Source: a virus
Direction: 5' to 3' (one strand)
IMG/VR virus record: IMGVR_UViG_3300010883_019551
Coordinates: 1 to 64,000 of that record
DNA: 64,000 nucleotides
Position 1 is the stretch's first letter. The number at the start of each line of letters is the position of its first letter. The translations under genes were made by a program, and so were the position numbers. The notes under the pieces were generated by a model. The model had not been told where the DNA came from and did no database searches. It was given only the letters and a program-made list of their open reading frames with translations. Positions 2,989-38,804 of the stretch are shown here, in pieces.

Positions 2989-3301
2989 TTTCTTCTTCCT
3001 CCTCGTCAGCGTAAATGTCGTCATCAATAGAGGCGCCGAGAGAATTAGCTATAGTAAGAATAGAATTCCGGGTGGTTTTAAGATCGTTTACGACCTGCCT
3101 TATCTCCGGACTATCATAAAAGAGTGGTATTTCTAAAACTTTAGAAATGGACATAACCCTTTCGTCTATCACATCAAGTGACTCCTCTACTGAATCTTGA
3201 ACTTTTAAGATTACTAGACCGAAACGTATACTAAAATAAACACCAACAACCGCTAGCGCAGCCAATGAAATAATTATCACTGTAGACGCTGTTAGACTCA
3301 T
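2969..3301 (-). CDS. Small membrane-anchored coiled-coil protein
   Basis: N-terminal hydrophobic helix and acidic C-terminus; ATGA overlap with upstream gene. Confidence 0.7.
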   Translation of the reverse strand: MSLTASTVIIISLAALAVVGVYFSIRFGLVILKVQDSVEESLDVIDERVMSISKVLEIPLFYDSPEIRQVVNDLKTTRNSILTIANSLGASIDDDIYADEEEEEIDSQEN

Positions 3302-4467
3302 ACAAATTCCTTTGCGGCTTCGTTATAGGACTCCTGTATTGCAGACGGTGAAAATTTTTCTCTAATTTTCTCTTGAAGCTCTTTAGCCCATCTTGTCGGA
3401 ATATCAGGCTTTTCATAAAACTTTCTTATCTTCTTCTTCGCGTCTTTCTCATCAACAGCTGCCCAACGCGAGCCTTCAACAAATATTTGATTATCAATTC
3501 TTGATGGGTGAATGGGTGCTAAGACATACTCTACCCCTATGAATTTGCCAAGGCCTAAAAAGTCTAGGTGTCCAGACCAGTTGGTTGCTATAACAGGAAG
3601 ACCACTAGCTGCAGCTTCTAGAAGCGGGAGGCCAAAACCTTCACCCCTGGTCAACGATATCATGCCCTTTATCTTTGGGTGCACATATAAGCGCGCTATT
3701 TCTTCTTCAGACATGTTTCCATGAAGTAGATAAATTTTTGGTCCCGGGCTGTCCCCTCTGACCTGTGTGATTAATTGAGTGAGAGTTTTAGATGTTACAG
3801 CCTTGTCTATTTTTGTTGCTCGACCAGAATTAACCTTAAGCACAATACCGACATTTTTATCACCTGCAAATTCTTCACATAACCACTTAACTGTATAGAA
3901 GAGATTTTTTCGGTCATTCTCTGGATTGTTTCCTGTGAATTGACCGAATACTAAAAAATTAAAGTCTGTTTGAAAATCAATATCTAGAGGTTTCAAATCA
4001 GGTGTATCAATTACGTTGTAATAAGACTCAGAAACAACAACAATGGGTGTGGTTAATGCTCCGGATGATAAAAGCACGTTTTTAGTGTGCTGGGATGGTA
4101 CTATGATTAAGTTCATTGAGTTACAATTCTTGATCCATGAAGAATTGCACTTGTCAGTTTCAACAGCAGCTGTGACACCCACATTAAAATTTGCTATATT
4201 TGGGTCCCACTCATTTGGAAGCTGGACCTGAAAAGACACATCATACTTTGGTGTGCCGCTCGGATCTATAGAGCGAGACATTATCTCGCCCACTAAACCC
4301 CCCTTGTCTTCTGTATTAATAAGCCAGGGCGTAGCGCCCCAGGGTAGACATTGAGCTGATACATCAAAGTCATCACGAGAAAGAGCCCATTCGAATATTT
4401 GACGAGAATGAACACCATACCCAGATAGCGTCAAAAGAGGTGCCCTAACTAAAACTTTCTTCTTCAT
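3298..4467 (-). CDS. Glycosyltransferase family 4
   Basis: RGEGFGLPLLEAAASGLPVIATNWSG (EX7E motif), N-terminal SGYG. Confidence 0.9.
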   Translation of the reverse strand: MKKKVLVRAPLLTLSGYGVHSRQIFEWALSRDDFDVSAQCLPWGATPWLINTEDKGGLVGEIMSRSIDPSGTPKYDVSFQVQLPNEWDPNIANFNVGVTAAVETDKCNSSWIKNCNSMNLIIVPSQHTKNVLLSSGALTTPIVVVSESYYNVIDTPDLKPLDIDFQTDFNFLVFGQFTGNNPENDRKNLFYTVKWLCEEFAGDKNVGIVLKVNSGRATKIDKAVTSKTLTQLITQVRGDSPGPKIYLLHGNMSEEEIARLYVHPKIKGMISLTRGEGFGLPLLEAAASGLPVIATNWSGHLDFLGLGKFIGVEYVLAPIHPSRIDNQIFVEGSRWAAVDEKDAKKKIRKFYEKPDIPTRWAKELQEKIREKFSPSAIQESYNEAAKEFV

Positions 4468-4468
4468 C

Positions 4469-5722
4469 TTATATCTCCTTGAGCACCCATGGTTTTCGCT
4501 TATCTTTCCAATTTTCTGCTAGATCTAGAAGTGACTCGTGCCAAAGGTCAATAGTTGTGTCTAGAGAAAATTCTGATTTAACGTACTCACAGGCTTTATC
4601 ACCCAGCACCTTTCTTCCTTCAGGACCCTCTTCGTACATCTGCAACAGTGCATTGGCAACAGTTTCAGCAGAGACATAGTCCTCATAAATGTATGGCACA
4701 TTTTGAGACCCTACTAGCGACTTAAATTCGACATCCAAACCAATTCCATTATGAGACCCATCTCGGTGGTCTTCAACTTGTCGCCAGAGGCCCCCTGTTT
4801 TCGCGGCGATGATAGGTGTACCTGTTTGCATAGCCTCTAATGTTGAGAGGCCAAATCCTTCGGCGTAGCTTATATTAACAACACAGTCTGAAATATTGTG
4901 GAGAATGTTCATCTTTTCAAATTCAACTCTGTCAGGAGAGAAAATGATAGACGTCTCTATTCCCAGCATTTCAGCAGTCGCGTATATGTTGGGCCCTTCC
5001 GGGTCGTCTGGTTGTGTATGAAGAAGAAGGGAGGCTTTTTGATGACCGTGCTTTTCTTGAAGTTTTTCCATAAAAAGCTTCCAAGCCCAAAGAAGATCGT
5101 TTGGTCTTTTCCTCTTGGCATTTCGGTTAACCCAAAAAGCTATAAAGTGATCAGCCCGGTCAGGAGAAACAACCTGCTTCTTAAACTCAAGCTTTTGTTC
5201 CTCGGGTATTGGAAAGAAAAGTTCATTAGGAAGCGCGTGAGGGATAAAGTTTGTTTTGTCCGGGAACATATCTCTAACAAACTTATACGTCATGTAAGAG
5301 TGGCAATTAATAAGATCGGTACTCTCATATAGCACACTATTATAAGATGGAACTGGATGATTATCCCACACGTGCCAGTATGCTATAGGGCAAACCTGAT
5401 GTATTTCATCTTCCATCTCCCACAGCCAGATAAAAAATCTAGGGTCTGTGAATAACAAAAGAATATCAGGTTTTTCTACTGCTAATGTAGTCCTTATGAG
5501 ATTAGGGTCACCAAAGCCATCAATGGGCTTGATAATAAAATCATCATTAATCGAAACAGTTCGATAGTCATTATGCTTTACAGCTGCGCCAAATTGTCTA
5601 ACAGACCAGTGCCCTGGATACTTCCTTAAGAGGCCCTCTATTAGAAATCTAGATTGACACCCTACGCCTGATGTACTCAGGGCGTGATCGGCTAGCATTA
5701 AAATTTTCTTCTTTTGAATCAT
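4469..5722 (-). CDS. Glycosyltransferase family 4
   Basis: NRNAKRKR and EGFGLSTLEAMQTGTPII motifs. Confidence 0.9.
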   Translation of the reverse strand: MIQKKKILMLADHALSTSGVGCQSRFLIEGLLRKYPGHWSVRQFGAAVKHNDYRTVSINDDFIIKPIDGFGDPNLIRTTLAVEKPDILLLFTDPRFFIWLWEMEDEIHQVCPIAYWHVWDNHPVPSYNSVLYESTDLINCHSYMTYKFVRDMFPDKTNFIPHALPNELFFPIPEEQKLEFKKQVVSPDRADHFIAFWVNRNAKRKRPNDLLWAWKLFMEKLQEKHGHQKASLLLHTQPDDPEGPNIYATAEMLGIETSIIFSPDRVEFEKMNILHNISDCVVNISYAEGFGLSTLEAMQTGTPIIAAKTGGLWRQVEDHRDGSHNGIGLDVEFKSLVGSQNVPYIYEDYVSAETVANALLQMYEEGPEGRKVLGDKACEYVKSEFSLDTTIDLWHESLLDLAENWKDKRKPWVLKEI

Positions 5723-5765
5723 ACCTTCTTAGTCCATTTTTCGCAGCTATGGTTTCTTTAAGAAT

Positions 5766-5793: not shown

Positions 5794-5809
5794 AGATATG
5801 TCAAATTCA

Positions 5810-6667: not shown

Positions 6668-6673
6668 GTGCTT

Positions 6674-6702: not shown

Positions 6703-7567
6703 TCTGAAATTGGTTTAATTTTTGTTTTATATAATCGCTTAAGTCAATAGTAGCTGACCATCCTGTGGCAGCAGATATATCAGCCACATCTGCCAGAGTT
6801 GACCAGGCCTCACCTGGGCGCTTTTCAACGTACTTGACTTCAGATTCGAACATCTTTGTCAACTCATTTATAGAGTAGTTTTTACCAGTACCCAGCTGGA
6901 ATACTTCTGAATTCCAGCTGCCCTTGGCTAGACTTTCGAAACCACTTACAATATCAGATACATGAGTGAAATCTCGCCTTTGCTCCCCTGTTCCTGTAAC
7001 TGTCAAGGGAAAACCGGCTTCACGTTGTTTTTCGAAAACACCCACAACAGTAGCATACGCTCCGGAGGTAGGTTGCCGATCTCCATACACATTGAAAAAT
7101 CTGGCAATAACTGTCGACATGCCATAGACTTTATTGTAGAGTTCACACGTTTGTTCTCCAGTATACTTTGCAAAAGCATATGGGTTGAGCATTGGGCCAG
7201 CGTACGCGGAGCTACTGCCAGCATATATGACTTTCGCGTCGCACCTTCTTGCAAACTCTAAAACATTAGAAGTGCCCATAATGTCTATAGAGAGGTATGT
7301 GAGCGGATCCTTAAAGCTGGGCTGGATTCTGGCTAGCGCAGCGAGATGATAAATCAGATCAAAAGACTCATTTGTATATTTGTATGTGTTAATATTTCTT
7401 ACGTCATCAATCCAGTAAGCTACGTCTTCGCGCATATATGATTTGCTACTAGACTCAGAGCAGAGATTGTCCATCACAGTTACATTATATCCTGCGTCTG
7501 CCAAAGAATCGACAAGATGTGATCCGACAAATCCCAAACCGCCTGTTACTAATATTTTAGTCATCAC
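6689..7567 (-). CDS. NAD-dependent nucleotide-sugar epimerase/dehydratase (extended SDR)
   Basis: TGGLGFVGS, HLAA, YAFAK (YxxxK), RFFNVYG, RDFTHVSD. Confidence 0.9.
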   Translation of the reverse strand: MMTKILVTGGLGFVGSHLVDSLADAGYNVTVMDNLCSESSSKSYMREDVAYWIDDVRNINTYKYTNESFDLIYHLAALARIQPSFKDPLTYLSIDIMGTSNVLEFARRCDAKVIYAGSSSAYAGPMLNPYAFAKYTGEQTCELYNKVYGMSTVIARFFNVYGDRQPTSGAYATVVGVFEKQREAGFPLTVTGTGEQRRDFTHVSDIVSGFESLAKGSWNSEVFQLGTGKNYSINELTKMFESEVKYVEKRPGEAWSTLADVADISAATGWSATIDLSDYIKQKLNQFQNVNF

Positions 7568-8420
7568 TCACTGCCCTTCCTGACATTGACTCCCAGTCCC
7601 TGTCAGATCTCAAATAGTTGTTCTTTTCTTGAACTGACTCTAAAAGGTCAGCATCAACACTGTGCTGGGCACCATAATAAATCATGGCTGCCAGATCTTT
7701 GGGAAAGCAGTGCCCACCAAAACCAAAATCGCCATCTGGCCCTGGGACAGTCAAGTGGCTCTTGCCTATTCTGTCATCGTATAGCGCATACTCGCATATT
7801 TTATCATAGTCTACTCCGCCGGCGTTACATATTTGATACATTTCATTGGCAAATGTTACCTTGGTCGCCAAGAAGCAATTAATAAAATACTTTGTCATTT
7901 CTGCTGTTTCTCGTTTTGTAATTACAATGGGAATTGACGGAAAAGCTTTCCTAAACATGCTCTTAACTTTCTTGGCATAGTTGCATTTGACATTAACATC
8001 GCCGCCGATTATAATTCTAGTTTGATTTTTGAAGTCATCAAAAGAATTAGCCTCGGTTAAGAATTCAGGACTAAAAACTACAGGACACACTGAAGCGCAT
8101 GCATCCGCAATTCTAGAGGTTGTGCCGGGCGGAACTGTTGACTTCAAAACTAGAACTGGGCGATTCATATTCGGATCAGAGCATGCTGACTTATCAATTC
8201 CGGTGACAACAGATTCTAAAAGACGAGTATCGCATGCGCCTGACTTTCTCATGGGGGTTGGAATACAAACAAAAATAATGTCTGAGTTTCGACAAACCTC
8301 TTCATGCGTGCTATTACATTTAGATTCGTCGATATCATAAGTCAATACGGTGTGATAATCCTTAAGACCCTCTCTAATTGCTGAGCCTACAAAGCCTTGT
8401 CCTACTATGCCAACTTTCAT
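7557..8420 (-). CDS. UDP-glucose/GDP-mannose dehydrogenase family, short form
   Basis: GQGFVG, KSTVPPGTT, SPEFLTE, AEMTKY, GFGGHCFPKD; lacks the C-terminal UDP-binding domain. Confidence 0.9.
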   Translation of the reverse strand: MKVGIVGQGFVGSAIREGLKDYHTVLTYDIDESKCNSTHEEVCRNSDIIFVCIPTPMRKSGACDTRLLESVVTGIDKSACSDPNMNRPVLVLKSTVPPGTTSRIADACASVCPVVFSPEFLTEANSFDDFKNQTRIIIGGDVNVKCNYAKKVKSMFRKAFPSIPIVITKRETAEMTKYFINCFLATKVTFANEMYQICNAGGVDYDKICEYALYDDRIGKSHLTVPGPDGDFGFGGHCFPKDLAAMIYYGAQHSVDADLLESVQEKNNYLRSDRDWESMSGRAVSDD

Positions 8421-22401: not shown

Positions 22402-23315
22402 TAAAACAATTGTAACACGTGCTTGAAGTATTGGTCAATGCAATCTTCCCAATTTTTTGGCTCTAGAGCACTATTTTTTTCGAATTTGTTTTTCTTAAGT
22501 CGGTTTATAAGCTCATCGAATGATCTGTACACATGATTCTGTCCAACCATTTCAACAGCACCACCTGAATTCCACAGGGCATAAGTTGGAATTTCGCATG
22601 CGAGGCTCTCAATGATATGATTGGGTCCAGGATCGTGTCGAGAAGCAGAAATATACACGTCATAACGGGAAAGCTTTTCGCCTAAGTCCTTTCCGAATGT
22701 AGGTGGAATTATAACAGTATTTTGAAACTTTGCTTTTGTTCGACCGATATAGGTGAATGTGTAATCATTATTGACTTCTAACCACTTATCGAGCATTTGA
22801 TACACATCTTGCCCCTTGAGCGGATTATCGGACCAATGATGCGTTACTAAGTTTATTTTTCCATTATCTAATTTTGGCCTGGGACAGAAGTGTTCCTTGT
22901 TTGTCCCAGAGTACACCACATGATTTCTGAGACATCTCCAATCTTCTTTGGTATGATAGTCCATTATCCAGTTAGAGATAAACACACAAAGGTCTGTAAC
23001 CCCACTGGCGGCGGTTATCACAGGATCTATATCGTTGTCTAAACCTTTTCGTTGATCACACTCATTAATTCTATAGACAACTTTTGTTTGTGGCCGAACG
23101 GCTTTGTATTGTGCTATCTCATTAATCGATATTCCCATCTCATCATATCTTGGGTCAATCATAAAAATAAGATCAATACTTTCGTCCAGCTGATATACGG
23201 GCGTGAAGCCATACTTGGGTGCATATTTGTGGATAGCTTTAACAAAGTTGTTTCCGCCGCCCCACGGACCTTCTACCGGGTTTCTATTGATTAGTATTTT
23301 TTTGTTTCCACTCAT
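22401..23315 (-). CDS. GT-B glycosyltransferase (GT4-like)
   Basis: PWGGGNNF, HHWSDNPLKG, DPGPNHIIESLAC. Confidence 0.75.
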   Translation of the reverse strand: MSGNKKILINRNPVEGPWGGGNNFVKAIHKYAPKYGFTPVYQLDESIDLIFMIDPRYDEMGISINEIAQYKAVRPQTKVVYRINECDQRKGLDNDIDPVITAASGVTDLCVFISNWIMDYHTKEDWRCLRNHVVYSGTNKEHFCPRPKLDNGKINLVTHHWSDNPLKGQDVYQMLDKWLEVNNDYTFTYIGRTKAKFQNTVIIPPTFGKDLGEKLSRYDVYISASRHDPGPNHIIESLACEIPTYALWNSGGAVEMVGQNHVYRSFDELINRLKKNKFEKNSALEPKNWEDCIDQYFKHVLQLF

Positions 23316-24504
23316 CTATTACTCCATAAACACTTTCCAAGTACAGACCGGTTGAATTAAACTCTGCAGCCCCTTCAAGTGTTTCTTTTAGAAATTTGTC
23401 TCTTTCTTCTTTTTTGTCTTCCCACTTATCCAAGACATTAAAGAAGTCCTCATGAACTGATATCGTTCCGTGATAGTTTTCAAAGTTTGCTACATTGCCC
23501 ATTTCCCTTATGATAACTGTTGGCTTGTCAACCTGTAAAGCTTTGAGACACATTGTAGAACCATAAGAAATAATACACTTTGAGTTTGATATAAGCCAAT
23601 TTTCTGCATACTCATCTGCTGTTATAACAAGCGGCATATTCGGGTCAAGTGATGCCCTGTTCTTTGTTACCATACTTTGAAGAAGGTGTACTAGAGCAGC
23701 TTCTTCTTTATTTTTTTCAGATGAGTCAATGATTCTGGGCGGGGGTTTTACCTTAAAGACGACTGGAAGTCTATAACGTTGCCACAAATCATTTATTTGT
23801 AAATTTTCAACGATAGTCATATCTGTTGTCATTCCGTCAAAGTCAACTCTATTAAGAACTATAAGAATATGAGAGTCTGTCTTTACCTCTGCTCTAATCA
23901 AATCATTTGAAGGAATTCCTGTGGTCATTATGTGATTATCAATATCATAAGCCTTGAGCCTATTTCTATCATATTCGCCGTAAATACAGAGCTTGTCATA
24001 AATTTTTCCCTGCTCTAGGGCAACAAACTTCCAAAGCCTTTCATTGTCAACATTGCCATGAATATTAGCAATTACTGGGATGTTTCTTTTTTTCATCTCT
24101 TCATAGAACGGTTCGAAAATAATCTTTGGAACTTGGTGACCTGCTGTTCTGGAGTCGTCGTATATTACACAATCAACATTAAATGTTGAAACCCTATCCA
24201 ACTCATTCACTAACGATGTTAATACATTTTCAATATCACTTTCGTACCAAATAGACACGCCTCTTTCATTAGTCACACGATTGGACCAGACTGTGTATGC
24301 ATGATCTTTGTTAAGACTATGCATTTCTTCCTTGATAACATCCACCTGGCGATTTTCGTTTATTGAATTCAAATTTGCAGCACCTAAAGCAAGAATTAAT
24401 ATATCATGAGTAATAGACAGCTGCTTAATGACGGGCATAATTCTTTCGGTGCGCCACCAATTGGTGCATAAAAATACTATACTACTTCTCATATTGGGAC
24501 TCAT
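23284..24504 (-). CDS. Uncharacterised GT-B-fold transferase (paralog of 24482-25603)
   Basis: Shares DDSR, PVIANxHGN, GxPxND and SYGSTMC motifs with its neighbour; lies in the glycan island. Confidence 0.55.
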   Translation of the reverse strand: MSPNMRSSIVFLCTNWWRTERIMPVIKQLSITHDILILALGAANLNSINENRQVDVIKEEMHSLNKDHAYTVWSNRVTNERGVSIWYESDIENVLTSLVNELDRVSTFNVDCVIYDDSRTAGHQVPKIIFEPFYEEMKKRNIPVIANIHGNVDNERLWKFVALEQGKIYDKLCIYGEYDRNRLKAYDIDNHIMTTGIPSNDLIRAEVKTDSHILIVLNRVDFDGMTTDMTIVENLQINDLWQRYRLPVVFKVKPPPRIIDSSEKNKEEAALVHLLQSMVTKNRASLDPNMPLVITADEYAENWLISNSKCIISYGSTMCLKALQVDKPTVIIREMGNVANFENYHGTISVHEDFFNVLDKWEDKKEERDKFLKETLEGAAEFNSTGLYLESVYGVIDEWKQKNTNQ

Positions 24505-25603
24505 TAATTACATCATAAACAGCTTTCACATATAAATCTGATGCATTGCAGTCTACACCACCTGTTACAGTTCTATTAAGAAAGTCAATTCTTTCGTTCT
24601 CATACTTTTCTGGATTTAGAATGTAGTCAAAATAATCTTCGCCCATCTTTACTTTTGCGTAGTAATCATCAAAATTTCCGACGTCGCCCAACTGTTCAAA
24701 TATTATAGTAGGAATTCCTGCCTGGATTGACTTAAAGCACATTGTGGAACCGTAAGATAACACACATGCTGCAGGTTCAATCAGCTTAATATCACTCTCG
24801 ATCTTGGATATTATATTATACTCGAGTCCTTCCGGAATATTATTCTCTAGCAAAGATATCTCTTTCCGCACACTATGACCAAAGCGATGTTTAAGCTTAA
24901 AAGTTACCGGTAATTTTAGAATGTCTTGGAGTTCTAGTAGGCGCATTCTTTCTAATGTCTTCTTGTCATACAAATACCAGCTGTCTCTTTTGTGTCCAGG
25001 ATTTACAAAATTAACAATAACTAAAATTTGTTCATCTGACCTCACTATGTCAGCAGCAGCATCATTATCTGGGACACCACCTAATAAGAAGAAATCTTTC
25101 TTGGTCATGTCTACTAGATTTTGTTTTTCTTTGGGCCCGAATACAAAAAGCTTGTCAAAGAATTTTTCATGCCCGACGGTTAAAACAGCATTCCAGCGCT
25201 TTGGGTCTTCATTACCATGAGAATTAGCAATGACAGGCACACCGTGCTTTTTACACAGTCTATAAAGTTCATTGAGGCCTACTTTGTCTCTAGAATCGTC
25301 AAGTATTACAACATCAGTAAGCTTATGTGGTATGTCTTTCTTAAAGATATTGATACACTCCCCTCGTAACGCAGGTAGGCCGGCCATCGTCCTGACACCA
25401 CTTGAATTTAATACTTTGCTTATTCTGTCTTTGTTCTTTTCAATTATTTCTGTGAATCTATTAGCCTTATATGGGGTTTGATCGCTTACTTGGCCGGCAC
25501 ATATTACAATAACATCATGAGTTTCAGACATCTTGAGAACTGCTGGGAACATTCTTTCAGCATTTCTATGAATAGTTGCAATGAATACTACCTTTCTTCT
25601 CAT
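24482..25603 (-). CDS. Uncharacterised GT-B-fold transferase (paralog of 23284-24504)
   Basis: Same shared motifs; FKLKHR resembles the KxHP segment of CMP-/CDP-dependent transferases. Confidence 0.55.
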   Translation of the reverse strand: MRRKVVFIATIHRNAERMFPAVLKMSETHDVIVICAGQVSDQTPYKANRFTEIIEKNKDRISKVLNSSGVRTMAGLPALRGECINIFKKDIPHKLTDVVILDDSRDKVGLNELYRLCKKHGVPVIANSHGNEDPKRWNAVLTVGHEKFFDKLFVFGPKEKQNLVDMTKKDFFLLGGVPDNDAAADIVRSDEQILVIVNFVNPGHKRDSWYLYDKKTLERMRLLELQDILKLPVTFKLKHRFGHSVRKEISLLENNIPEGLEYNIISKIESDIKLIEPAACVLSYGSTMCFKSIQAGIPTIIFEQLGDVGNFDDYYAKVKMGEDYFDYILNPEKYENERIDFLNRTVTGGVDCNASDLYVKAVYDVINESQYEK

Positions 25604-25612: not shown

Positions 25613-27253
25613 CTAGCTTCTTTGAGCGATGAGATTATACTCAGGAAAGTATAGATAGTCAATTTCTGTGCCTAAAAAGCAGTTGACAGCGTGGTTGACG
25701 TCCTCACAGATAGGCTCTCTATCATTAAAGCTAGTATTTAGAATGATTGGTACACCTGACACTTCTTCCCACTTCTTGAGAAAGTTGTAATACCACTCGT
25801 TATCTTCTTTGCGGACAGTTTGAAGGCGCGCTGTGCCGTCAAAATGAACAACAGCGGGAACTTTGTCTTTTTTATCTTCTTTGAAGCTGAGCACAAATTG
25901 CATATAGGGAGATTCTTGATATTCAGTAAACCACTCACTTACTCGCTCTTCTAGAATCGATGGCGCGAAGGGCCTAAACCACTGTCTATGTTTTACCTTT
26001 TCGTTGATTATATCTTTCATGTTAGGATTCCTTGGGTCTGCTAAAATACTTCTATTTCCCAGCGCTCGGCGCCCTGATTCAGACTTTCCATGAAATACAG
26101 AGACTATATTACCCTCGGTCAGTAGTGATGTCACTCTGTCTAAAGTGCATTCCTCAAATTTAAGATCTTTGGTTTTCATGACTTCATCAAAATGTGATCT
26201 ATCCCATACTTCGCCCAAATAGGGCGTGAAGTTATGCTTCCATTCTATTCTTGGGTTACCCAAAACTTCATGCCAGACTATTTGCGCGGCTCCTAAAGTT
26301 AAACCCCCATCGTATGGAACAGGTGGTATATACACATTCTCTACTCTGTCCCCAAACCATGACTTAATTTTTCCCATTGCAACAGAATTTAGAACGACGC
26401 CGCCAGAAAGACAGATATTTTTTGTTGATGGCGATGACTGAAGTGCATAATCAATTAATTGATAGATTACTTTTTCTGTTGCCTTCTGGAGGCTGGCTGC
26501 TAAGTCAAATACATCTTGCTCAGTTTTTCTTCCAATAGCAGCCCAGGGCTCAAGATACGGATGTTTTGGGTCTCGATCAGATGTGGCGCCGACCGGCTGG
26601 TCTAACGGCTTCATCCCTGCAGGAAGTATGTCTACTGTCAACATTCTCCAAAAATCTTCTGCATATTTATCTTTATCCCCAAGTGCAGCCATGGCCATAA
26701 TAGTACCTTCTTGACCACCCTTTGGCCAACCATTCTGTAGCTTAAAAATGTATCTTGTGATTCTAGACCAAACACCTCCAATATTAACTTCATTTGGCCT
26801 GAATGTTCTGACATGCTTCATTGAATTGTCAGATCCATGCCACAAAGTACATGCAGACTCTCCTCCATTTTCATCTTCAGCTCCGCCGCCGTCCATAGTA
26901 AGGACAATAGCATCTTTAAGATTGCTAGAATAGAAGGCATTGGCAGCATGTGCCCTGTGATGAGAAACAAAATGAAATTTCCCACCATTCTTTTCAGCAG
27001 TCTGGCATGCTTTTTCGTAAGACGCTTTGTGCTCTGTTGTCTTTCTAACAGGATGTACTGACGCATAGTGAACTATTTCGTCTGCATGCTCCGGAGAACG
27101 ATCTGTTAAGAACTTGAGGGCATCGCCTGGTGGGCATTTCTCTCTATTGTACCTCTCATATTCTGCATGGATAAGAGGTTTTCCATTTTCTAGTACGGCG
27201 AAAGAGCAGTCGTGCCCACACCAAATTCCGGCAATCTTCATTTTATTTTTCAC
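25613..27253 (-). CDS. Carbamoyltransferase, NodU/CmcH family
   Basis: HD, SHHRAHA, DGGG, SGGVVLNS, ESGRRALGNRSILADPR, RQWFRPFAPS, HFDGTARLQTV, LNTSFN. Confidence 0.93.
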   Translation of the reverse strand: MKNKMKIAGIWCGHDCSFAVLENGKPLIHAEYERYNREKCPPGDALKFLTDRSPEHADEIVHYASVHPVRKTTEHKASYEKACQTAEKNGGKFHFVSHHRAHAANAFYSSNLKDAIVLTMDGGGAEDENGGESACTLWHGSDNSMKHVRTFRPNEVNIGGVWSRITRYIFKLQNGWPKGGQEGTIMAMAALGDKDKYAEDFWRMLTVDILPAGMKPLDQPVGATSDRDPKHPYLEPWAAIGRKTEQDVFDLAASLQKATEKVIYQLIDYALQSSPSTKNICLSGGVVLNSVAMGKIKSWFGDRVENVYIPPVPYDGGLTLGAAQIVWHEVLGNPRIEWKHNFTPYLGEVWDRSHFDEVMKTKDLKFEECTLDRVTSLLTEGNIVSVFHGKSESGRRALGNRSILADPRNPNMKDIINEKVKHRQWFRPFAPSILEERVSEWFTEYQESPYMQFVLSFKEDKKDKVPAVVHFDGTARLQTVRKEDNEWYYNFLKKWEEVSGVPIILNTSFNDREPICEDVNHAVNCFLGTEIDYLYFPEYNLIAQRS

Positions 27254-28361: not shown

Positions 28362-29444
28362 CTAGTCTGTTAACCACTCATCCATAAAATCTAGATTTTT
28401 GCTAGTTACGGGAATATCGGGAGTGGCCTGGGCCTCTATAGTAGATGACGATGCTGTGCCATCAAATAAAGTCACAGGTCCTTCACTGTATAGGGTATCC
28501 ATGTTGTTCTTTGTATCATACTTCAAAAGATCGCCGGCTGTATCACGAGAGTAATCCCAGCCAATGCCGTGGCACATATCTGTAAAAGAAATGGGTCGAC
28601 TACTTTGTTCTAGTTTAGCATGGTCTTCAAGCGATGTCATTTCATAGTAAAGCTCTTTTGTCCCAAAGGGTGGTAAATAGTGACCAACCCTATTATCACC
28701 TCTGACAATTGCATGCATACCTCGTGGATCATTCCAAACCGCAGCAAAAGAAGGGACATGTGGACAAAACATAAACTGTAAAAGATTGGATTGATATGCC
28801 TTTGCAGACATTACATCTTCAGCACTGGTAAATCCGTCGACTGTCTTCTCCTTAAGCTCAACAGGATAATTTCCTATCTTCTCAAAAAGCTTGGGACTGA
28901 ATAGACCTGTGGTTCCTAAGTGAATATTACTCATCTGCCAATACTTGCTTTCTGTAATTGGAGATCGCTGTGCCTCTGATCCTTGTACTATGTTAGACTC
29001 AACTGAGACCTTTCTGATAATATGAACAGACTGGTGTGCCTGATTAGACAGTGCAAAGTCAACAACAGATGCGGCAAATGCATGAGTATTAACAAGTTGA
29101 CTATCATCTTGCAAAAAACAGATGACCTGGTCGGGCTTGGTAGTTGCCCATGGCGTTTCCTGGTTGACCCTGGAAAGAATTTCATTTTTTCCTTTCCACT
29201 CATCATTAGAAGGATCTCTTTCAGGACGATATACTACTTCGTCTATAACCTCACATGTGTCTAGATATTCCTTCGCGCCGGGTTCTGTGGTGCCATTATC
29301 AACGTATATGACTCTGGTGTTTATCTTGTCAGAATATTGGTCCTTGAAGATTTGCAAACTTTTGAGAAGTGCTTTACTATACAAAAGCCTGTTACATGCT
29401 GTTATTCCTACTAAAAGATTAATATTTTCTGTTACACTATCCAC
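28362..29444 (-). CDS. GT-A fold (GT2-like) glycosyltransferase
   Basis: ACNRL, YVDNGT, FLQDDSQ, SAED. Confidence 0.65.
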   Translation of the reverse strand: MDSVTENINLLVGITACNRLLYSKALLKSLQIFKDQYSDKINTRVIYVDNGTTEPGAKEYLDTCEVIDEVVYRPERDPSNDEWKGKNEILSRVNQETPWATTKPDQVICFLQDDSQLVNTHAFAASVVDFALSNQAHQSVHIIRKVSVESNIVQGSEAQRSPITESKYWQMSNIHLGTTGLFSPKLFEKIGNYPVELKEKTVDGFTSAEDVMSAKAYQSNLLQFMFCPHVPSFAAVWNDPRGMHAIVRGDNRVGHYLPPFGTKELYYEMTSLEDHAKLEQSSRPISFTDMCHGIGWDYSRDTAGDLLKYDTKNNMDTLYSEGPVTLFDGTASSSTIEAQATPDIPVTSKNLDFMDEWLTD

Positions 29445-29448: not shown

Positions 29449-29829
29449 CTAGTCTCCCTTGTGAATTCTTATAGAGTCTTCATCAAAATGTTGAGTTGAA
29501 AATTCGTATATTTTTGTTTCTTCCAGCGCAATCATTCTGTGCTTAAGGCCTGGGTATACATGGAATGCTTGACCGGCGCCTAGAATAATACTGTTAGCTG
29601 TATCAATATCTTCGTCATCTGAGTACAACAAATTTATCTTGCCCGAATGGACAAATAAGACCTCATCTTTGATCTTGTGATAGTGCCATGAACATTGTTT
29701 GCCCTCATCGAAGAATAGAAGTTTTCCACAATATGCTGGCTTATTTACTATCCACTTTTCGTGCCCCCAACCTTTGGTGACATACTTAATTTTTGAAATA
29801 ATCATTCGCGTTGATCGCCTTATCATCAA
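29449..29829 (-). CDS. Cupin sugar(-phosphate) isomerase-like protein
   Basis: KGWGHE, CSWHYHKIKDE, KHR, EFSTQHFDEDS. Confidence 0.8.
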   Translation of the reverse strand: MMIRRSTRMIISKIKYVTKGWGHEKWIVNKPAYCGKLLFFDEGKQCSWHYHKIKDEVLFVHSGKINLLYSDDEDIDTANSIILGAGQAFHVYPGLKHRMIALEETKIYEFSTQHFDEDSIRIHKGD

Positions 29830-31242: not shown

Positions 31243-32177
31243 TGATTCAATAGAATATTTGTGTATTCTTTTGCTGCTTCAGAAAATTCTCTAAACGGAG
31301 AAGTAAAACCCGCCCTTCTTAGATTTGTAATGTCTGCCTTTGTGTATGACTGGTATTTGTCTTTGAGTTTTTCCGGGAAAGGAACAGTTTTAATTTTAGC
31401 CTCTGTAACAGAAGATACTATTTTTGCTGCATCCATGAAAGAGTTTGTTTCACCTGATCCGCAATTATAAATCCCTACAAATTCTGATTTTCTCATGAAG
31501 TGCATGTTAATCTTGACAATATCATCAATGTGAACAAAATCTCTCAAATAATTCTCACTTCCTTCGAAGACGTTTATTGCCTTGTTTTCTATTGCCTGTC
31601 TTGTGAACTGATTTATTGGTGAAGCCATGCCCTCTTTGTGATCTTCTCCGGGGCCATAAACATTAAAATATCTTAGTCCAACAATCTGTACGTTAGAATC
31701 AAAGCTATAGTTTCTTCTAAAGTAATTGTCAAACTCGAGTTTTGATTTTCCGTATACATTAAGCGGATTTTCGCAATCCACGTCTGCTTCAAACCCTTTG
31801 TCACCCAATCCGTAAACAGCAGCAGAGGATGCATAGATCATTCTAATATCATGTTCCATACAATGATGAAATATACCCACTGATAACGTGTAATTGGTGT
31901 CCATCATTTCATCATCATCTGGGTGTGTTGTGTCAGTTATGGCCCCTTGATGAAATATCGTTTCAATGTTTCCTATATCACAGAACTTTCCATTTTTGAT
32001 GGACTCAAGACACTTATCTTTTTCGATAATATCTTTGTAGGTACAACCCACTAGATTATTTTCACTGCCGTTTTTGGGGGAGTCAATAATATAAATGTTT
32101 TTGTAGTTCAGATCATTTAGTTTGCGAACAATGTTTGATCCTACAAATCCCATTCCGCCTGTTACAATAATACTCAA
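31239..32177 (-). CDS. hldD: ADP-L-glycero-D-manno-heptose 6-epimerase
   Basis: TGGMGFVGSN, FHQGA, YASSAAVYG, PLNVYGKSK, RYFNVYGP, MAS, YQSYTKAD. Confidence 0.9.
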   Translation of the reverse strand: MSIIVTGGMGFVGSNIVRKLNDLNYKNIYIIDSPKNGSENNLVGCTYKDIIEKDKCLESIKNGKFCDIGNIETIFHQGAITDTTHPDDDEMMDTNYTLSVGIFHHCMEHDIRMIYASSAAVYGLGDKGFEADVDCENPLNVYGKSKLEFDNYFRRNYSFDSNVQIVGLRYFNVYGPGEDHKEGMASPINQFTRQAIENKAINVFEGSENYLRDFVHIDDIVKINMHFMRKSEFVGIYNCGSGETNSFMDAAKIVSSVTEAKIKTVPFPEKLKDKYQSYTKADITNLRRAGFTSPFREFSEAAKEYTNILLNQ

Positions 32178-33007
32178 TTCAATTTACTCCTTACAGACTC
32201 TAGTATTTCAATTGGGTCATGTTTCTGAGCCTCTGAGTTGCAATGATGACAATGTGTCTTCATTCCACACGGTCCGTGGTTTTTACCTACCCATATGTTT
32301 GTATTTTGTGGGTAACATGTCATAGTGGGATGAATGAAGCCAGTATAGAGAATGACCGCCGGCGTGTCGACAGCATTTGCTGCATGCATTAAGCCTCCCT
32401 CAGATGAGACAAATAGGCGTGAGTGTTTAATAATCATTGCTGCTTCTCTAAAAGTTGTCTTTCCGGTTAGATTGACAACTCCTGACAGTGTTTTGTCTTT
32501 GGTCTCTCTTCCGACCTGAACTAAAATGTGGCCGTCTTTGATTAGTTCGTCTGCTACATACTGCCACTTTTCAATAGGGTACTTCTTATTAACAGTATAC
32601 TCATCATTTGATTGAGGCTCTATGACTATGTAACGTTTAAGATGATCCCAGTGTTTTCTAACACTTTGTACCTCATCATCACTAAAGTATAATTCACACT
32701 TGAGCTCCGGGTTCTTCACACCATAGAACTCACAAATTTGCTGTATTATGTGACAATCATGTCGATGTACAGCCCTTTGAGGCGTGTCTTGTTTGCAATA
32801 GTTTGTTCGAGGATTATTTAGCTGCATTGGAATAGCAGTGTTATTGTCAAATTCTTGAAGAATATACGGATTATTTTCAAATATTGGCGTTCGTACCGGC
32901 TTGATTAAATTTCCATGTTGCTCGAACGGAAATACTTTTCCGATGCCGGTCGACTGTACTAGTTCTCTAGCAACTGCAGTCCATGTAAGATAACCGCCTA
33001 ACCCCAT
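32174..33007 (-). CDS. GT9 heptosyltransferase-like protein
   Basis: GLGG N-terminus, NLTGKTTFREAA, EGGLMHAANA. Confidence 0.85.
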   Translation of the reverse strand: MGLGGYLTWTAVARELVQSTGIGKVFPFEQHGNLIKPVRTPIFENNPYILQEFDNNTAIPMQLNNPRTNYCKQDTPQRAVHRHDCHIIQQICEFYGVKNPELKCELYFSDDEVQSVRKHWDHLKRYIVIEPQSNDEYTVNKKYPIEKWQYVADELIKDGHILVQVGRETKDKTLSGVVNLTGKTTFREAAMIIKHSRLFVSSEGGLMHAANAVDTPAVILYTGFIHPTMTCYPQNTNIWVGKNHGPCGMKTHCHHCNSEAQKHDPIEILESVRSKLN

Positions 33008-35364: not shown

Positions 35365-36083
35365 TTCACAAATCCTCGCGATCTTAGATACTCACCCTCT
35401 GTCTTCTGAAACTTGGCATCGTCAGTTTGAAATGTCAAAGGGTTCATGTCAATAGTATAGTGGTACGCAACGATAGGCTCAAAATGCCAGTTGCCGGCGG
35501 ACTGGTGTAACACGGGCAAATATATTGCTTGATCACCTATGCGCTTAAAGTACTCACCATCAGCAGACCTAAAATTTTCGTCTTTGACACGTTCTATTAC
35601 ACTCTTCTTAAATGTTTTGAAGTGTGAGCTTACCCATTGATGTTCATAGGGATTAGCATCTCTTGGTAGCGGCGCTGATATGTTTTGATTTGTAAATGCC
35701 CAACGATGTTTGGTCCACAAAACATTACATCCAGTAGTTCTGTATCTATGATCGATTATAGTTAATGCATCTGAATCGCAGAGCCAGTCATCTCCATCAA
35801 GTCGACAAACAATATCATTTGTTTCACATTCTTCGAGGGACTCTAGAATATTTCTAACTTCCCACTTCTTTTCTGTATTAGTTGTTAATGATATTTGATC
35901 GTTAGAGAGACCAAAGTTTTTCTTAAAGTGTTCTACAGCTACTCTAGTTTTATCGGTTGACATATCATCTTTGATAATGATCTTCCAATTAGGATAAGTT
36001 TGTGACCAAACAGACAATAATGTACGACTAATAGTTTCTTCTGCATTAAATGCCGGCATGATAAAGACAAACCTATTACTCAT
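35361..36083 (-). CDS. Glycosyltransferase family 2
   Basis: MPAFNAE, DDMSTD, LDGDDWL; start at 36083 preferred (ATGA overlap). Confidence 0.9.
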   Translation of the reverse strand: MSNRFVFIMPAFNAEETISRTLLSVWSQTYPNWKIIIKDDMSTDKTRVAVEHFKKNFGLSNDQISLTTNTEKKWEVRNILESLEECETNDIVCRLDGDDWLCDSDALTIIDHRYRTTGCNVLWTKHRWAFTNQNISAPLPRDANPYEHQWVSSHFKTFKKSVIERVKDENFRSADGEYFKRIGDQAIYLPVLHQSAGNWHFEPIVAYHYTIDMNPLTFQTDDAKFQKTEGEYLRSRGFVK

Positions 36084-36883
36084 TTTTTCACCAAATATCT
36101 TTCGACCCATGGGCCGCCTTCATGTGTTCTATTGGAAAGAGACAAAATAATAAATCCCACATCCCGTAACATGTGTGCCATATCTCTTTCATGAAATGGA
36201 AACATATGAGCAAATTCTAATCTTGGAATTCCGGGCTCTACAGGAATTTCTACATGAAAATAAGCATCAGCATCCATGGCGTCATATACTTTCTGAAGTG
36301 CTATAAGTGGATCTGATAAGTGTTCTAGCATGTGGTAAGAAACAACTAGCGATGCACCCTTCAGATCTAGAACTTCAGAACAATTATTAAAGTCGTATTT
36401 TCGTCCATCATAGCCCATTTTTTCTGTTACACCTATGCTTAAAGGTGTCACATCATATCCCCATGCTGGTACACTGAGCTTTTCTCCATAGTGTTTCATT
36501 AGTCTCGGAACTCTAAATCCCAACTCCACAAACCCGGAATGACTTACCTTTCCAAGATTAACCTCTAAAGAGCGCCACGTGTCTTCTAGCTCATTAATTC
36601 TTACTTGATCGGCACTGTTTAGTTTCATGACTTCGTCTATCTGAGACATCACATTCTCTAAAGTGTCGTTTTCGTATATTGCTAGACTTCTAGAAGACTG
36701 TAGATCAATGTACACATCATTATCAATTCTTTCGTAGCATTGACGTGTTCCAAATGAATACTTTCGCTCAACTAGTGAGAAATTTTTGTTTGATCTAGTT
36801 TCTGACCAATTATTCTGGCCCTTGAGTGATACTAGTCTGTTAACTTCTTCTCGTAAGGACTCAAAGACTGTCTCTTTACTCAT
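36080..36883 (-). CDS. SAM methyltransferase-like protein
   Basis: VELG, GYDV, HMLEHLSDP, EIP (Methyltransf_23-like). Confidence 0.7.
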   Translation of the reverse strand: MSKETVFESLREEVNRLVSLKGQNNWSETRSNKNFSLVERKYSFGTRQCYERIDNDVYIDLQSSRSLAIYENDTLENVMSQIDEVMKLNSADQVRINELEDTWRSLEVNLGKVSHSGFVELGFRVPRLMKHYGEKLSVPAWGYDVTPLSIGVTEKMGYDGRKYDFNNCSEVLDLKGASLVVSYHMLEHLSDPLIALQKVYDAMDADAYFHVEIPVEPGIPRLEFAHMFPFHERDMAHMLRDVGFIILSLSNRTHEGGPWVERYLVKK

Positions 36884-38804
36884 TGCTTCCGAAATCCATT
36901 ACTGATGGGTGATTCGTTTTAAGTGTTAGATGCGGTGTAGGCTTAGAGAAATCAATCGGGGCATGGAATATCCACCCACCCATTTCATTAGCTAGCTTAG
37001 CCGACAATTCTTTAATATCTTCGTCTGTAACTTCTGACCATGGACGTCCAAAGAACAAATTGTTGTCTGCAGTATCTTCTTGCTGAATATCGTACAGACT
37101 CTGCCAATGCTGTGACCAGTAGTCTCTGTAAGTTCTGATCTTTCTAGGGAGATCAAACCAAGAGTAGTGATGTACACTCGGAAGTAATTGAGTGCAATTA
37201 TCAAACCACTCTTCGTATTGATCCTTGACTTCGTTATTCCCAGCTAAGGCTTGCACTCTAGCTACATGGGTCTCGTTAGTATAGAAACTAGCATGAGGAA
37301 TTACTTCATATGTTTGATTATGGATGTAATCACACCCATCAGTTCCCATCTGTGCGTAGAGATTTCCATCAGAGTCAGTTTTCTGAAGTTGTTTTGGTAT
37401 CCCATGGGTGATATGTGGCATATTTCTGGATAATCGCCACTTCCACGGGTTGACATCCATTCTAACCTTTTCTTCGCCGCCCCAGTACTCGATCACAGGC
37501 AGTGCTATTAAATCAACTTGGCCTGGGAATGCTGAGCAGAGATTACGTATCTTATCATAATCATTCTCATGGACAACCTCATCAGCATCTTGCTGCCATA
37601 GGAAATCCATAGTGCATCTTTTTCTAGCCTCAGCCTTTTGGGCACCATCGAAGACCGCAAACCTGGGATGATCCCAGTCTCTCTCTACAAGATGCACTTT
37701 AAGCTTGTCTTCTGTTTCTGACCAAGCTTGAAGATCCTCATAAGTTCCGTCGTCTGAACCACCGTCAACAATAACTACTTCATCACAGAATCCCAAAAGA
37801 GACTTGATTGACTGTTTCCATGGGTACTGATGTCTGTTGCAGTTAAATGTCGTTGTATAACCGCTGATAGAAGGTGTCCAGTTCATGTCTTGCTTAATTG
37901 TCTCCCAAAAGCGTCCTCGCGCCGCGTAAAGATATGCCTCTGTGTCAAAAGGATCGTCGGTATTAAACCAAATTTCATCCTTGTGTTGAACATTATCATT
38001 TAGATGAAGTTCGCACCCTAGCATCTGAGCTTCAATAACCATACGTGGGCATGTATCCCAGCCGGCTGGAAGATAAACAAAACCCTGGGCTTGAACTAAC
38101 TTCTCAAGTACTTGTTCATAAGGAAGACCCCAGACAACTTCATAGTCTTTATTGGTATCTTTACACCACTGTTCAGCTGCATCGGCTCCTTTGACCCAGC
38201 TAGTTGAGCCTAAAACGATCCAACCTTTTCGCTCAACATCTTTGTATTTTTCTTTAAGAACGTTAACTGCAGCAAAATATCTGTCATCAAAGACAGAGCT
38301 GAGGACAACATTATTCTTCTCTTCTAGAAAGGGAAATGTTTTATGATAGTGGTACATCTGAGCTTCAGACATCCACCAGAGCGAACGGGCACCAAACATA
38401 AATGCAGATATCATTTTACCATGCATCGATTCATTATCATCACAAGGCTTGCCTTCGATATTCTCATGCTTCTGAGGTGATCTCCACTTGCAATACTTGT
38501 AGTCATACTCAAGCATGGAATAAGAGATATTTGCCACAATTGTCGGAATCAACTCATGTTTCATGTGTGAGTAATTACCGAAAATCCAATGACAATTTTG
38601 ACCCTCTTCAAGCAGCTCAAGAGACACATCCCTAGCTCTAAGTTTGTGAATATTAAATGGACACTTCTCAATGAGTGCCTCTGAGGTCAGCTCAGCTCCT
38701 CCTACATAGTCCTCAACGAACATGTCTGAGACGAAAACTATTTCTGTTCCATCTGGTAAGCTGGCTTCTTGTTTCTGGTCAAATGGGCTCTGATTTCCGA
38801 ACAT
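36876..38804 (-). CDS. Bifunctional glycosyltransferase (GT-B N-terminal + GT2 C-terminal)
   Basis: GGAELT...DTCPRMVIEAQMLG, followed by VIVDGGSDDGT...QDADE. Confidence 0.85.
   Translation of the reverse strand: MFGNQSPFDQKQEASLPDGTEIVFVSDMFVEDYVGGAELTSEALIEKCPFNIHKLRARDVSLELLEEGQNCHWIFGNYSHMKHELIPTIVANISYSMLEYDYKYCKWRSPQKHENIEGKPCDDNESMHGKMISAFMFGARSLWWMSEAQMYHYHKTFPFLEEKNNVVLSSVFDDRYFAAVNVLKEKYKDVERKGWIVLGSTSWVKGADAAEQWCKDTNKDYEVVWGLPYEQVLEKLVQAQGFVYLPAGWDTCPRMVIEAQMLGCELHLNDNVQHKDEIWFNTDDPFDTEAYLYAARGRFWETIKQDMNWTPSISGYTTTFNCNRHQYPWKQSIKSLLGFCDEVVIVDGGSDDGTYEDLQAWSETEDKLKVHLVERDWDHPRFAVFDGAQKAEARKRCTMDFLWQQDADEVVHENDYDKIRNLCSAFPGQVDLIALPVIEYWGGEEKVRMDVNPWKWRLSRNMPHITHGIPKQLQKTDSDGNLYAQMGTDGCDYIHNQTYEVIPHASFYTNETHVARVQALAGNNEVKDQYEEWFDNCTQLLPSVHHYSWFDLPRKIRTYRDYWSQHWQSLYDIQQEDTADNNLFFGRPWSEVTDEDIKELSAKLANEMGGWIFHAPIDFSKPTPHLTLKTNHPSVMDFGSNE

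Follow-up and report, generated by a model that had tools for sequence, protein, structure and literature searches.

What does a phage make with some 40 genes of glycan synthesis, and which molecule receives the product? The question is posed by the window analysed here, a stretch of 64,000 nucleotides (positions 1 to 64,000 of IMG/VR record IMGVR_UViG_3300010883_019551, a genome fragment of 79.7 kb), in which an island at 3298-38804 is filled by 40 open reading frames (ORFs), all on the minus strand, where almost all of the coding of the window lies. Neighbouring genes overlap or are ≤3 nt apart at 32 of the 39 junctions, with a widest gap of 87 nt, confirming the co-oriented and mostly coupled block of ~40 genes described in a first-pass annotation, which took the island for a glycan factory serving to coat the phage's own particles. 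Sugar activation, glycosyltransferases (GTs) and tailoring with methyl and carbamoyl groups agree with a factory, but one gene of the block encodes a PD-(D/E)XK nuclease rather than a sugar enzyme. Comparison with related phages indicates that the island is best explained as a hypervariable, cassette-type glycan assembly locus that occupies a fixed slot between conserved anchors.

The slot and its cassette among related phages

The first island gene encodes a 642-amino-acid (aa) bifunctional GT with counterparts at 43 related loci (46-68% identity), in all 43 of which it forms the 5' anchor of the island. A homologue of the GT4 gene that starts at 3298 was found in 33 of the 43 related records, the PhoH-like gene in 31, and the PD-(D/E)XK nuclease in every relative whose 3' island end is visible. 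The order is constant: PrkA triad, tubulin and PhoH, followed by 0-15 kb of fibre-like ORFs, the 642-aa GT, the cassette, the nuclease-GT4-GT4 trio and the baseplate side, which runs from the 110-aa membrane protein through the 259-aa, 125-aa and 536-aa proteins to, beyond two further genes, a gp6-like wedge. The 34 contigs with both ends have islands spanning 5.2-36.1 kb (median 19.2 kb), of which the present one, at 35.5 kb, is the second largest. The minimal island of 5.2 kb consists of the 642-aa GT, the nuclease and two GT4 genes only, and modules for heptose, for UDP-galactopyranose mutase (Glf) with a carbamoyltransferase, and for ulosonate routes are gained or lost between relatives. 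What is new here, as read from more than 40 related contigs, is the fixed slot with conserved anchors and a swappable cassette.

The contig comes from IMG/VR, and near-identical sequence is present in marine and seawater metagenomes of several studies. Among the relatives, T4-type Gp23 capsid genes are present in a genome of 293,409 bp with direct terminal repeats (G005) and in every one of the contigs of 242-273 kb. These features, with the IMG/VR origin, bear out the view that the DNA belongs to a phage and not to a bacterial chromosome; it is a partial genome from a lineage of marine jumbo myophages that have a T4-like core. The lineage may correspond to the published 'moraphages', a lead for which no shared identifiers were found. 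A chimeric assembly was considered and ruled out, because synteny is kept in more than 40 contigs and contigs of two independent marine runs span the junction between the fibre gene and the island. CheckV gives the 79.7-kb record a completeness of 5%, implying ~1.6 Mb, whereas relatives at 22-28% imply 280-370 kb; the 5% value looks unreliable, a complete relative being 293 kb.

Sugar donors, transferases and membrane steps

Families were assigned by Pfam and NCBIfam profile searches with curated equivalog cut-offs (Table 1). Three enzymes exceeded these cut-offs, namely KDO8P synthase (KdsA), Glf and the ADP-glyceromanno-heptose 6-epimerase HldD, and the routes to 3-deoxy-D-manno-octulosonate (Kdo), heptose and galactofuranose (Galf) proposed in the first-pass annotation are borne out. 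HldD scored 330.3 bits with TIGR02197 (cut-off 274.6). The KdsA assignment is marginal: it passes NF003543 (244.4 vs 242 bits) but fails TIGR01362 (238 vs 314). In the heptose block, which directly adjoins the gene of a GT9 transferase, the kinase and adenylyltransferase are matched best by the models for rfaE domains I and II, yet below their cut-offs, and the EcbF/BcbF match of the phosphatase is weak.

Three ulosonate routes can be discerned. The Kdo route comprises the KDO8P synthase and a KdsB/PseF-like cytidylyltransferase, accompanied by a SIS-domain protein. A nonulosonate-like route pairs a short NeuB-family synthase with a PseF-like cytidylyltransferase and adds a 2-hydroxyacid dehydrogenase, and the island holds no upstream enzyme of the NeuC or PseB type for it; the match of the 236-aa synthase stops at model position 250 of 329. 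In the third route, an HpcH aldolase and a third cytidylyltransferase are joined by two transferases, one GT29-like and one MptE/Maf-like. Uronic acid and other steps are represented by two short nucleoside-diphosphate (NDP)-sugar dehydrogenases, a short-chain dehydrogenase/reductase (SDR), oxidoreductases and a cupin, and the tailoring set by one NodU-type carbamoyltransferase and four methyltransferases. The two NDP-sugar dehydrogenases are adjacent paralogues of only 287 and 290 aa, neither of which matches the usual C-terminal UDP-binding domain; both are kept in the relative G002. By these assignments, soluble enzymes encoded by the phage make CMP-Kdo, ADP-heptose, UDP-Galf, at least two more CMP-ulosonates and uronic acids. 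A 360-aa protein with no family match has counterparts in G001, G005 and G006 (28-46% identity). The nearest bacterial homologues of HldD are proteins from metagenome-assembled genomes at 36-40% identity, and no host can be inferred from them, because they are scattered over unrelated phyla.

The transferases comprise three GT4, two GT2, one GT9, one GT29-like, one MptE/Maf-like and one weak GT1_4 protein, two paralogous GT-B-like proteins and the two domains of the 642-aa enzyme, which amounts to 13 GT domains within 12 proteins and agrees with the earlier count of ~13. The AlphaFold2 (AF2) model of the 642-aa enzyme (pLDDT 91.3) has a predicted GT-B fold at residues 18-310, closest to 6kih (Z 20.4) and BshA (Z 19.6) and also resembling T4 alpha-glucosyltransferase (Z 16.4) and the GT of phage HY126 (Z 15.4), followed by a predicted GT-A fold at residues 307-622, similar to SunS (Z 15.2; Foldseek E 3.5e-9). 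Although structural comparison gives a GT-B fold, hhalign found no similarity between the N-terminal domain and the GT4 family, and no match to the enzyme was found in cultured phages. The paralogues of 406 and 373 aa resemble Glyphos_transf, Capsule_synth, Epimerase_2 and GT1 clusters of the ESM Atlas (TM-scores 0.65-0.77), and both match one and the same place in G001. Searches of PDB sequences with the GT9, MptE-like, GT29-like and 406-aa proteins returned nothing useful; the matches of the GT29-like protein, to ST6GalNAc2 and ST3Gal1, are confined to motif L.

None of the membrane steps of surface-glycan export was detected. A Kyte-Doolittle scan of the whole 79.7-kb contig revealed no multi-pass membrane protein, consistent with soluble island enzymes, as had been claimed. 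Hidden Markov model (HMM) searches for membrane machinery covered the window's own record (G000) and four large relatives (G005-G008, of which G005 is complete). Throughout this set there were no matches to the initiating transferases PF02397 and PF00953, which were found in 10 and 12 of the 14 control genomes, respectively, to Wzx (PF01943) or Wzy/WaaL (PF04932), both detected in controls, or to WaaA (GT30, PF04413), detected in E. coli, Caulobacter and Bacteroides. KpsC/KpsS-type Kdo transferases (PF05159) were likewise without a match in the same genomes, a result that is not decisive for the 406- and 373-aa paralogues. The sole many-segment hydrophobic protein in G005 and G006 is a tape-measure-like ORF of ~1600 aa. 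Thus, the first-pass statement that Wzx, Wzy/WaaL, an initiating transferase and multi-pass proteins are missing withstood the hydropathy scan and HMM searches with responsive controls, and export genes that might complete the locus elsewhere were detected neither in the complete 293-kb relative nor in the other three large ones.

Table 1. Features of the island and its flanks (window coordinates; recurrence in relatives given where recorded)
Position	Strand	Feature	Evidence or remark
248-1858	-	536-aa probable baseplate hub/spike	OB fold, Z 6-7 to central spikes
within 248..3301	-	259-aa and 125-aa proteins, with the 536-aa protein	kept in G001-G006 and many loci
2969-3301	-	conserved 110-aa single-pass membrane protein	one strong N-terminal transmembrane helix, acidic tail
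4469-5722, 3298-4467	-	two conserved GT4 glycosyltransferases, 3' anchor	PF00534, PF13692, PF20706
5810..6667	-	PD-(D/E)XK nuclease, part of conserved 3' anchor	PF12705, 74.6 bits
6689-7567	-	SDR epimerase/dehydratase	
7557-8420	-	NDP-sugar dehydrogenase, short	TIGR03026, 202.5 bits vs cut-off 189.8
8417-9289	-	NDP-sugar dehydrogenase, short	
9286-9930	-	GT2 glycosyltransferase	
9927-10844	-	D-2-hydroxyacid dehydrogenase	PF02826, below NCBIfam equivalog cut-offs
10844-11542	-	PseF-like cytidylyltransferase	PF02348, below NCBIfam equivalog cut-offs
11539-12249	-	short NeuB-family synthase, 236 aa	PF03102, below NCBIfam equivalog cut-offs
12291-13574	-	DUF4910/M28/HTH_47 protein	
13559-14380	-	FkbM methyltransferase	
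14383-15138	-	unknown 251-aa protein	
15135-16136	-	SIS-domain isomerase-like protein	PF01380 (weak); GmhA match 35 bits
16123-16815	-	HpcH/HpaI aldolase	PF03328
16812-17564	-	MptE/Maf-like putative ulosonate transferase	PF01973, 46.6 bits
17506-18228	-	KdsB/PseF-like cytidylyltransferase	PF02348
18219-19007	-	KDO8P synthase (KdsA)	NF003543 (scores in text)
19047-19706	-	CMP-ulosonate synthetase	PF02348; coupled to GT29-like gene
19703-20506	-	GT29-like sialyltransferase	PF00777, 43 bits
20507-21553	-	FAD oxidoreductase	PF01266
21550-22401	-	GFO/IDH/MocA sugar oxidoreductase	PF01408
22401..23315	-	putative GT-B transferase (weak)	PF13692, 20.6 bits, below cut-off; kept in many relatives
23284..25603	-	two paralogous GT-B-like transferases, 406 and 373 aa	no Pfam match; structure search
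25613..27253	-	NodU-type O-carbamoyltransferase	PF16861, 214 bits; PF02543
27243..28349	-	UDP-galactopyranose mutase (Glf)	TIGR00031, 407.1 bits vs cut-off 303.75
28362..29444	-	360-aa protein	no Pfam/NCBIfam match; kept in relatives
29449..29829	-	cupin, weakly WbuC-like	PF07883; TIGR04366, 19.7 bits
29786..32177	-	ADP-L,D-heptose block: small HAD phosphatase, kinase, adenylyltransferase, HldD, contiguous	TIGR02197, rfaE models
32174..33007	-	GT9 heptosyltransferase-like, 277 aa	PF01075, 69.8 bits
32998..33924	-	GT4 glycosyltransferase	PF13692, PF00534
34639-35364, 33921-34646	-	two S-adenosylmethionine methyltransferases	PF13489 and PF08241
35361..36110	-	GT2 glycosyltransferase	PF00535, 63.8 bits; directly after anchor gene in most relatives
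36080..36883	-	class I methyltransferase (weak match)	PF13489, 24.5 bits, under cut-off 27
36876..38804	-	bifunctional glycosyltransferase, 642 aa, 5' anchor	Pfam GT2; AF2 model
39012..50026	-	two giant fibre-like ORFs, 1487 and 2183 aa	flank varies among relatives, outside conserved frame
50746..52053	-	PhoH-like gene, conserved upstream boundary of variable region	phrog_2765, E 6e-97
53709-54071	-	transfer-messenger RNA (tmRNA)	Rfam RF00023, 116.8 bits
55752-57185	-	divergent GroEL-like protein	phrog_5725, E 1.2e-11
57471-61938	-	PrkA/YeaG-like AAA kinase, YeaH-like and SpoVR-like triad	kept in relatives

The flanks of the contig carry PhoH, tubulin, the tmRNA, the PrkA/SpoVR/YeaH triad and a helicase. 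The phage-encoded tmRNA lies between the tubulin gene and small ORFs and specifies the tag peptide ANNDNYEYALAA. PrkA homologues occur in metagenomic phages of 480-640 kb and in Thermus phages, and the GroEL-like protein has no adjoining GroES and is 25-31% identical to its counterparts in relatives.

What receives the glycan

The first-pass annotation had argued from the missing exporters to glycosylation of the virion. This step does not hold, because host MsbA, Wzx or WaaL could serve, so that the lack of exporters cannot separate a virion target from remodelling of host glycans. In the latter case, soluble phage GTs would modify the host lipid A-Kdo core or host-primed, undecaprenyl-pyrophosphate-linked units at the cytoplasmic face, host MsbA/Lpt, Wzx or ABC exporters together with WaaL would bring the altered glycan to the surface, and the outcome would be a block to superinfection or progeny that do not stick to debris. 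Host modification is the usual published reading of the lipopolysaccharide (LPS)-type clusters of cyano- and pelagimyophages, including islands with tail-fibre genes (PMC7029224; PMC12801897). Signatures of the LPS core are present in the form of Kdo, L,D-heptose and the GT9 enzyme, and since the LPS and O-antigen transferases of bacteria are soluble or peripheral too, an absence of transmembrane segments is expected in this case. The conserved 110-aa single-pass membrane protein, which always directly follows the GT4 pair, could be a tether that holds the enzymes at the membrane, or could be unrelated. We nevertheless consider a host-envelope acceptor rather unlikely. No membrane step has a phage copy in the complete relative, and GTs conserved at 46-68% identity would require an equally conserved host acceptor; furthermore, the position among structural genes may point to late expression, which would leave little time for export. 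Known seroconverting phages, moreover, use one to few genes, mostly for membrane proteins.

The acceptor that we favour, tentatively and at less than even confidence, is a protein of the virion itself, in the fibre or baseplate complex, an arrangement that would give each phage a 'serotype'-like sugar coat. Precedents for glycosylation of virions in the cytoplasm by virus-encoded enzymes are found in mycobacteriophages (Freeman et al. 2023, as cited in PMC12619734) and in the fibrils of mimivirus (PMC9614988). The fuller version of this proposal, in which a jumbo phage infecting Gram-negative bacteria builds an LPS-like glycan (Kdo, heptose, other ulosonic acids, Galf, methyl and carbamoyl groups) in the cytoplasm on its fibre or baseplate proteins and cassette exchange yields virion 'serotypes' as a counterpart of O-antigen diversity, is somewhat more doubtful. 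Assembly of the glycan would take place in the cytoplasm, directly on an acceptor that all members of the lineage have in common, the conserved transferases laying the base and the cassette enzymes extending and decorating it. Because even the minimal 5.2-kb islands retain the core transferases, an acceptor shared across the lineage is suggested; a molecule made by the phage would meet that requirement more readily than host surfaces, which vary. The locus is also co-oriented with, and directly upstream of, spike and wedge genes, an arrangement that holds throughout the lineage, and lies here directly downstream of fibre-like genes. Of the original case for cytoplasmic virion glycosylation, the phage origin, the soluble enzymes and the lack of exporters in the lineage stand, but the argument from fibre position fails.

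The two genes upstream of the island had been described as giant Ser/Thr/Asn-rich fibre genes. The 2183-aa ORF indeed matches the structural protein phrog_697 (E 2.9e-33) and YadA-domain structural/fibre proteins of cyanomyoviruses, over ~200-400 residues only, but the 1487-aa ORF has no Pfam or PHROG match and the enrichment is only moderate (24-25% Ser/Thr/Asn vs a background of 17.6%). A pattern search for the fibre genes in relatives retrieved no related loci, and the 2183-aa ORF was not found in G001-G004. Within this flank, at 41264-41927, all four marine runs show an approximate doubling of contig depth, with contig breaks at 41677 and 41720, which suggests a fibre-domain segment common to other phages or variable within the population. 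The 207-nt gap that separates the fibre gene from the first island gene contains, at 38831-38961, two copies of a direct repeat of ~20 nt ending in CTCTTAAGACA; near-exact copies within the window are limited to that gap, and the repeat may be a regulatory site.

Several observations weigh against a virion acceptor. Among relatives, the 642-aa GT lies anywhere between 68 bp and 14.8 kb from PhoH, and seven related contigs have no gene at all between PhoH and the first island gene, five of which carry measured islands of 14.5-30.4 kb; conversely, G042 has fibre-like ORFs beside only a minimal 5.2-kb island. The link between island size and fibre content that the first-pass annotation had put forward for examination did not emerge across relatives (Spearman -0.23, p 0.31, n 21, uncorrected for relatedness). 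Fibre adjacency, its basis for placing the glycan on the virion, is therefore not conserved and characterises this phage and some of its relatives rather than the system. No island enzyme belongs to a protein-specific family, and none identifies an acceptor. Kdo and L,D-heptose are hallmark sugars of the LPS core. The GT9 protein scores higher as an LPS heptosyltransferase (TIGR02195, LPS HepII, 44.5 vs a cut-off of 134.6; TIGR02193, 38.6 vs 185.3) than as an Aah/TibC protein heptosyltransferase (TIGR04414, 24.9 bits vs 200), all far under the cut-offs for either a WaaC/WaaF or an Aah/TibC equivalog; given the GT9 fold in common with Aah/TibC, this enzyme may yet act on a protein. In Flavobacterium phage immuto, which alone among cultured phages was found to carry the conserved nuclease-GT-GT trio, the homologous cluster is ~22 kb from the baseplate genes, beside lysis and small early-like genes, and the positional argument for a virion target is weakened because that cluster is not next to structural genes. 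Expression timing offers no help: a promoter and terminator scan of 33-52.5 kb gave counts at chance level, the window has a single copy of the T4 late motif TATAAATA where 4 are expected, and no RNA runs are listed as containing the sequence.

On the baseplate side, the gene described as a baseplate gene next to the island is a plausible but weakly evidenced one. The label is plausible because the 536-aa protein has an OB fold like those of central spikes and an ESM Atlas lead to Gp5_OB (0.91), and a gp6-like wedge gene follows three genes downstream in relatives. The AF2 model is poor (pLDDT 47.9), structural comparison was limited to the N-terminal OB domain, and a profile of the family found nothing among PDB sequences.

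DNA is a further candidate acceptor, absent from the earlier interpretation and added here. Some or all of the GTs would attach sugars to hydroxymethylated or hydroxylated pyrimidines and thereby evade restriction, with host defence diversifying the cassette. Phage GT-A and GT-B enzymes related to those of LPS and teichoic acid synthesis glycosylate 5-hydroxymethylcytosine (5hmC), adding hexose, N-acetylhexosamine, heptose, Kdo or uronic acid as mono- to trisaccharides (bioRxiv 10.1101/2023.12.21.572611), and in phage RL38J1 Glf and transferases serve DNA glycosylation (PMC13326640). In the present lineage, relatives G005-G008 encode a putative base-modifying enzyme of the 5hmC, 5-hydroxycytosine (5hoC) or 5-hydroxymethyluracil (5hmU) type, which is not on the window's own fragment. 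The thymidylate-synthase homologue of G005 is nearest to CMP/dCMP hydroxymethylases (82.8 and 69.4 bits vs ≤45.7 for ThyA) and adjoins a 5-hydroxymethyldeoxyuridine (5-hmdU) DNA kinase and a C5 DNA methylase; because of this association, the lineage probably hypermodifies its DNA and has modified pyrimidines. The cluster concerned lies at 221.6-235.8 kb of G005 (1666-15775 in L076) and includes Pol III alpha, the hydroxymethylase-like homologue, a dUTPase, an inositol-1-P-synthase-like protein, an FkbM methyltransferase, the kinase, the methylase, an SDR and a thymidine kinase. A nuclease within the conserved core, the two 3'-anchor GT4 genes, which also pass the Pfam GT4-conflict threshold, and the resemblance of the anchor GT-B domain to BshA, 6kih, T4 alpha-glucosyltransferase and the phage HY126 GT would suit the same interpretation, but these structural matches are generic for the GT4 fold. 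In G005, moreover, the GTs are not adjacent to base-modifying enzymes, the island at 82-113 kb being ~110 kb from the modification cluster at 221-236 kb, and 13 GT domains with methyl and carbamoyl tailoring far exceed known DNA glycans, which reach at most a trisaccharide. Liquid chromatography with ultraviolet and mass-spectrometric detection of immuto virion DNA found only dA, dC, dT and fdPreQ1 (PMC10516641); since this phage thus has canonical dC, dT and dA despite its homologous nuclease-GT-GT cluster, DNA is disfavoured and, as an acceptor, quite improbable.

The least probable of the acceptors weighed here, with a slim chance, is another cytoplasmic molecule: host proteins such as receptors or machinery, a non-structural phage protein, or an oligosaccharide, free or lipid-bound, that lysis would release. 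The enzymes are all soluble and cytoplasmic, and the upstream context (PhoH, tubulin, tmRNA and PrkA triad) is non-structural, but there is no precedent at this scale and no specific feature in support. Should the virion target prove true, exchangeable sugar coats would bear on adsorption, decoy avoidance, grazing and particle stickiness at sea; for a host-surface or DNA target, no larger example of the strategy would be known than this island.

Comparison with known systems

Bacterial O-antigen and capsule loci share with the island the conserved flanks, the exchangeable cassette of nucleotide-sugar, GT and tailoring genes and a similar sugar repertoire. They differ in having an initiating transferase, flippase or ABC exporter, polymerase, ligase and chain-length regulator, all missing here, so that of the features of a surface-polysaccharide locus only the clustered sugar, GT and tailoring genes are present; as for the LPS inner core, neither WaaA nor a WaaC/WaaF equivalog is.

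Immuto offers the closest cultured parallel, with a PD-(D/E)XK nuclease, two GT-B transferases and then more sugar genes; for the GT4 genes of the 3' anchor, identity to immuto gp181 is 31.6% over the full length. Unlike the present island, its cluster measures ~11 kb in a 160-kb phage, is not by structural genes and lacks a homologue of the 642-aa anchor. Because a cultured phage with the conserved trio exists, the acceptor question can be answered at the bench.

DNA glycan clusters resemble the island in that their GT-A and GT-B enzymes are soluble and LPS-like, the phage makes its own donors of heptose, Kdo, uronic acid and Galf, the acceptor is cytoplasmic and conflict with the host drives diversification (bioRxiv 10.1101/2023.12.21.572611; PMC13326640). 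However, they are small, with 1-3 transferases, and stand beside 5hmC/5hoC enzymes, from which the island of a relative is separated by the distance given above.

Mycobacteriophages glycosylate their virions with few genes and host sugar donors, in actinobacterial hosts, but, as here proposed, with soluble phage GTs whose genes are close to structural ones and which modify proteins of the phage itself in the cytoplasm, at least as far as the account in PMC12619734 relates it (Freeman et al. 2023, Cell Host Microbe). Phage GTs beside structural genes are found in the present lineage and not in immuto. The mycobacteriophage glycans have reportedly been demonstrated by experiment on capsid and tail tube.

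Giant viruses likewise encode their own nucleotide-sugar pathways, including Kdo, with transferases and methyltransferases and without export machinery: CroV has a 38-kb glycan cluster of 34 ORFs with a Kdo pathway, and mimivirus a 12-gene cluster beside the gene of its glycosylated fibril protein R135, with a content that varies by clade (PMC9614988). These are viruses of eukaryotes, in which bacterial-like glycans aid phagocytic uptake, a role without a phage counterpart, and the loci are not homologous.

The nearest resemblance is to the LPS-type clusters of marine phages, which have been reported repeatedly and whose target has never been shown. Islands that mix tail-fibre and LPS-type genes in pelagi- and cyanomyophages have been read as modifying the host O-chain (PMC7029224), and S-SCSM2R, with 13 transferases, was called possibly the highest count in a marine phage (PMC12801897); a jumbo-phage lineage with four core GT families has also been published. 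The host recognition cluster (HRC) and LPS-type clusters of these reports (including S-SCSM1 and P-SSM2, PMC12801897) share a T4-like core, a hypervariable island of tens of kb in or beside the structural region, and fibre genes mixed with glycosyltransferases, rfaE, UDP-sugar dehydrogenase and KdsA/KdsB. The present lineage conforms in having Gp23, an island that spans 5.2-36.1 kb and a fibre region that extends over 0-14.8 kb. It differs in its slot, which runs from PhoH to a gp5-like spike and not from VrlC to gp14 (neither of which was searched for here), in the coupling of all 40 genes into one block, whose 13 GT domains equal the count of the whole S-SCSM2R genome, and in the combination of three ulosonic-acid routes with heptose and Galf, the conserved anchor GTs flanking a swappable cassette. 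The island is thus a very large case of published, unexplained phage glycan clusters, set in a comparative series in which one slot, with the same anchors throughout, ranges in content from three or four transferase domains (5.2 kb) to ~40 genes (36 kb).

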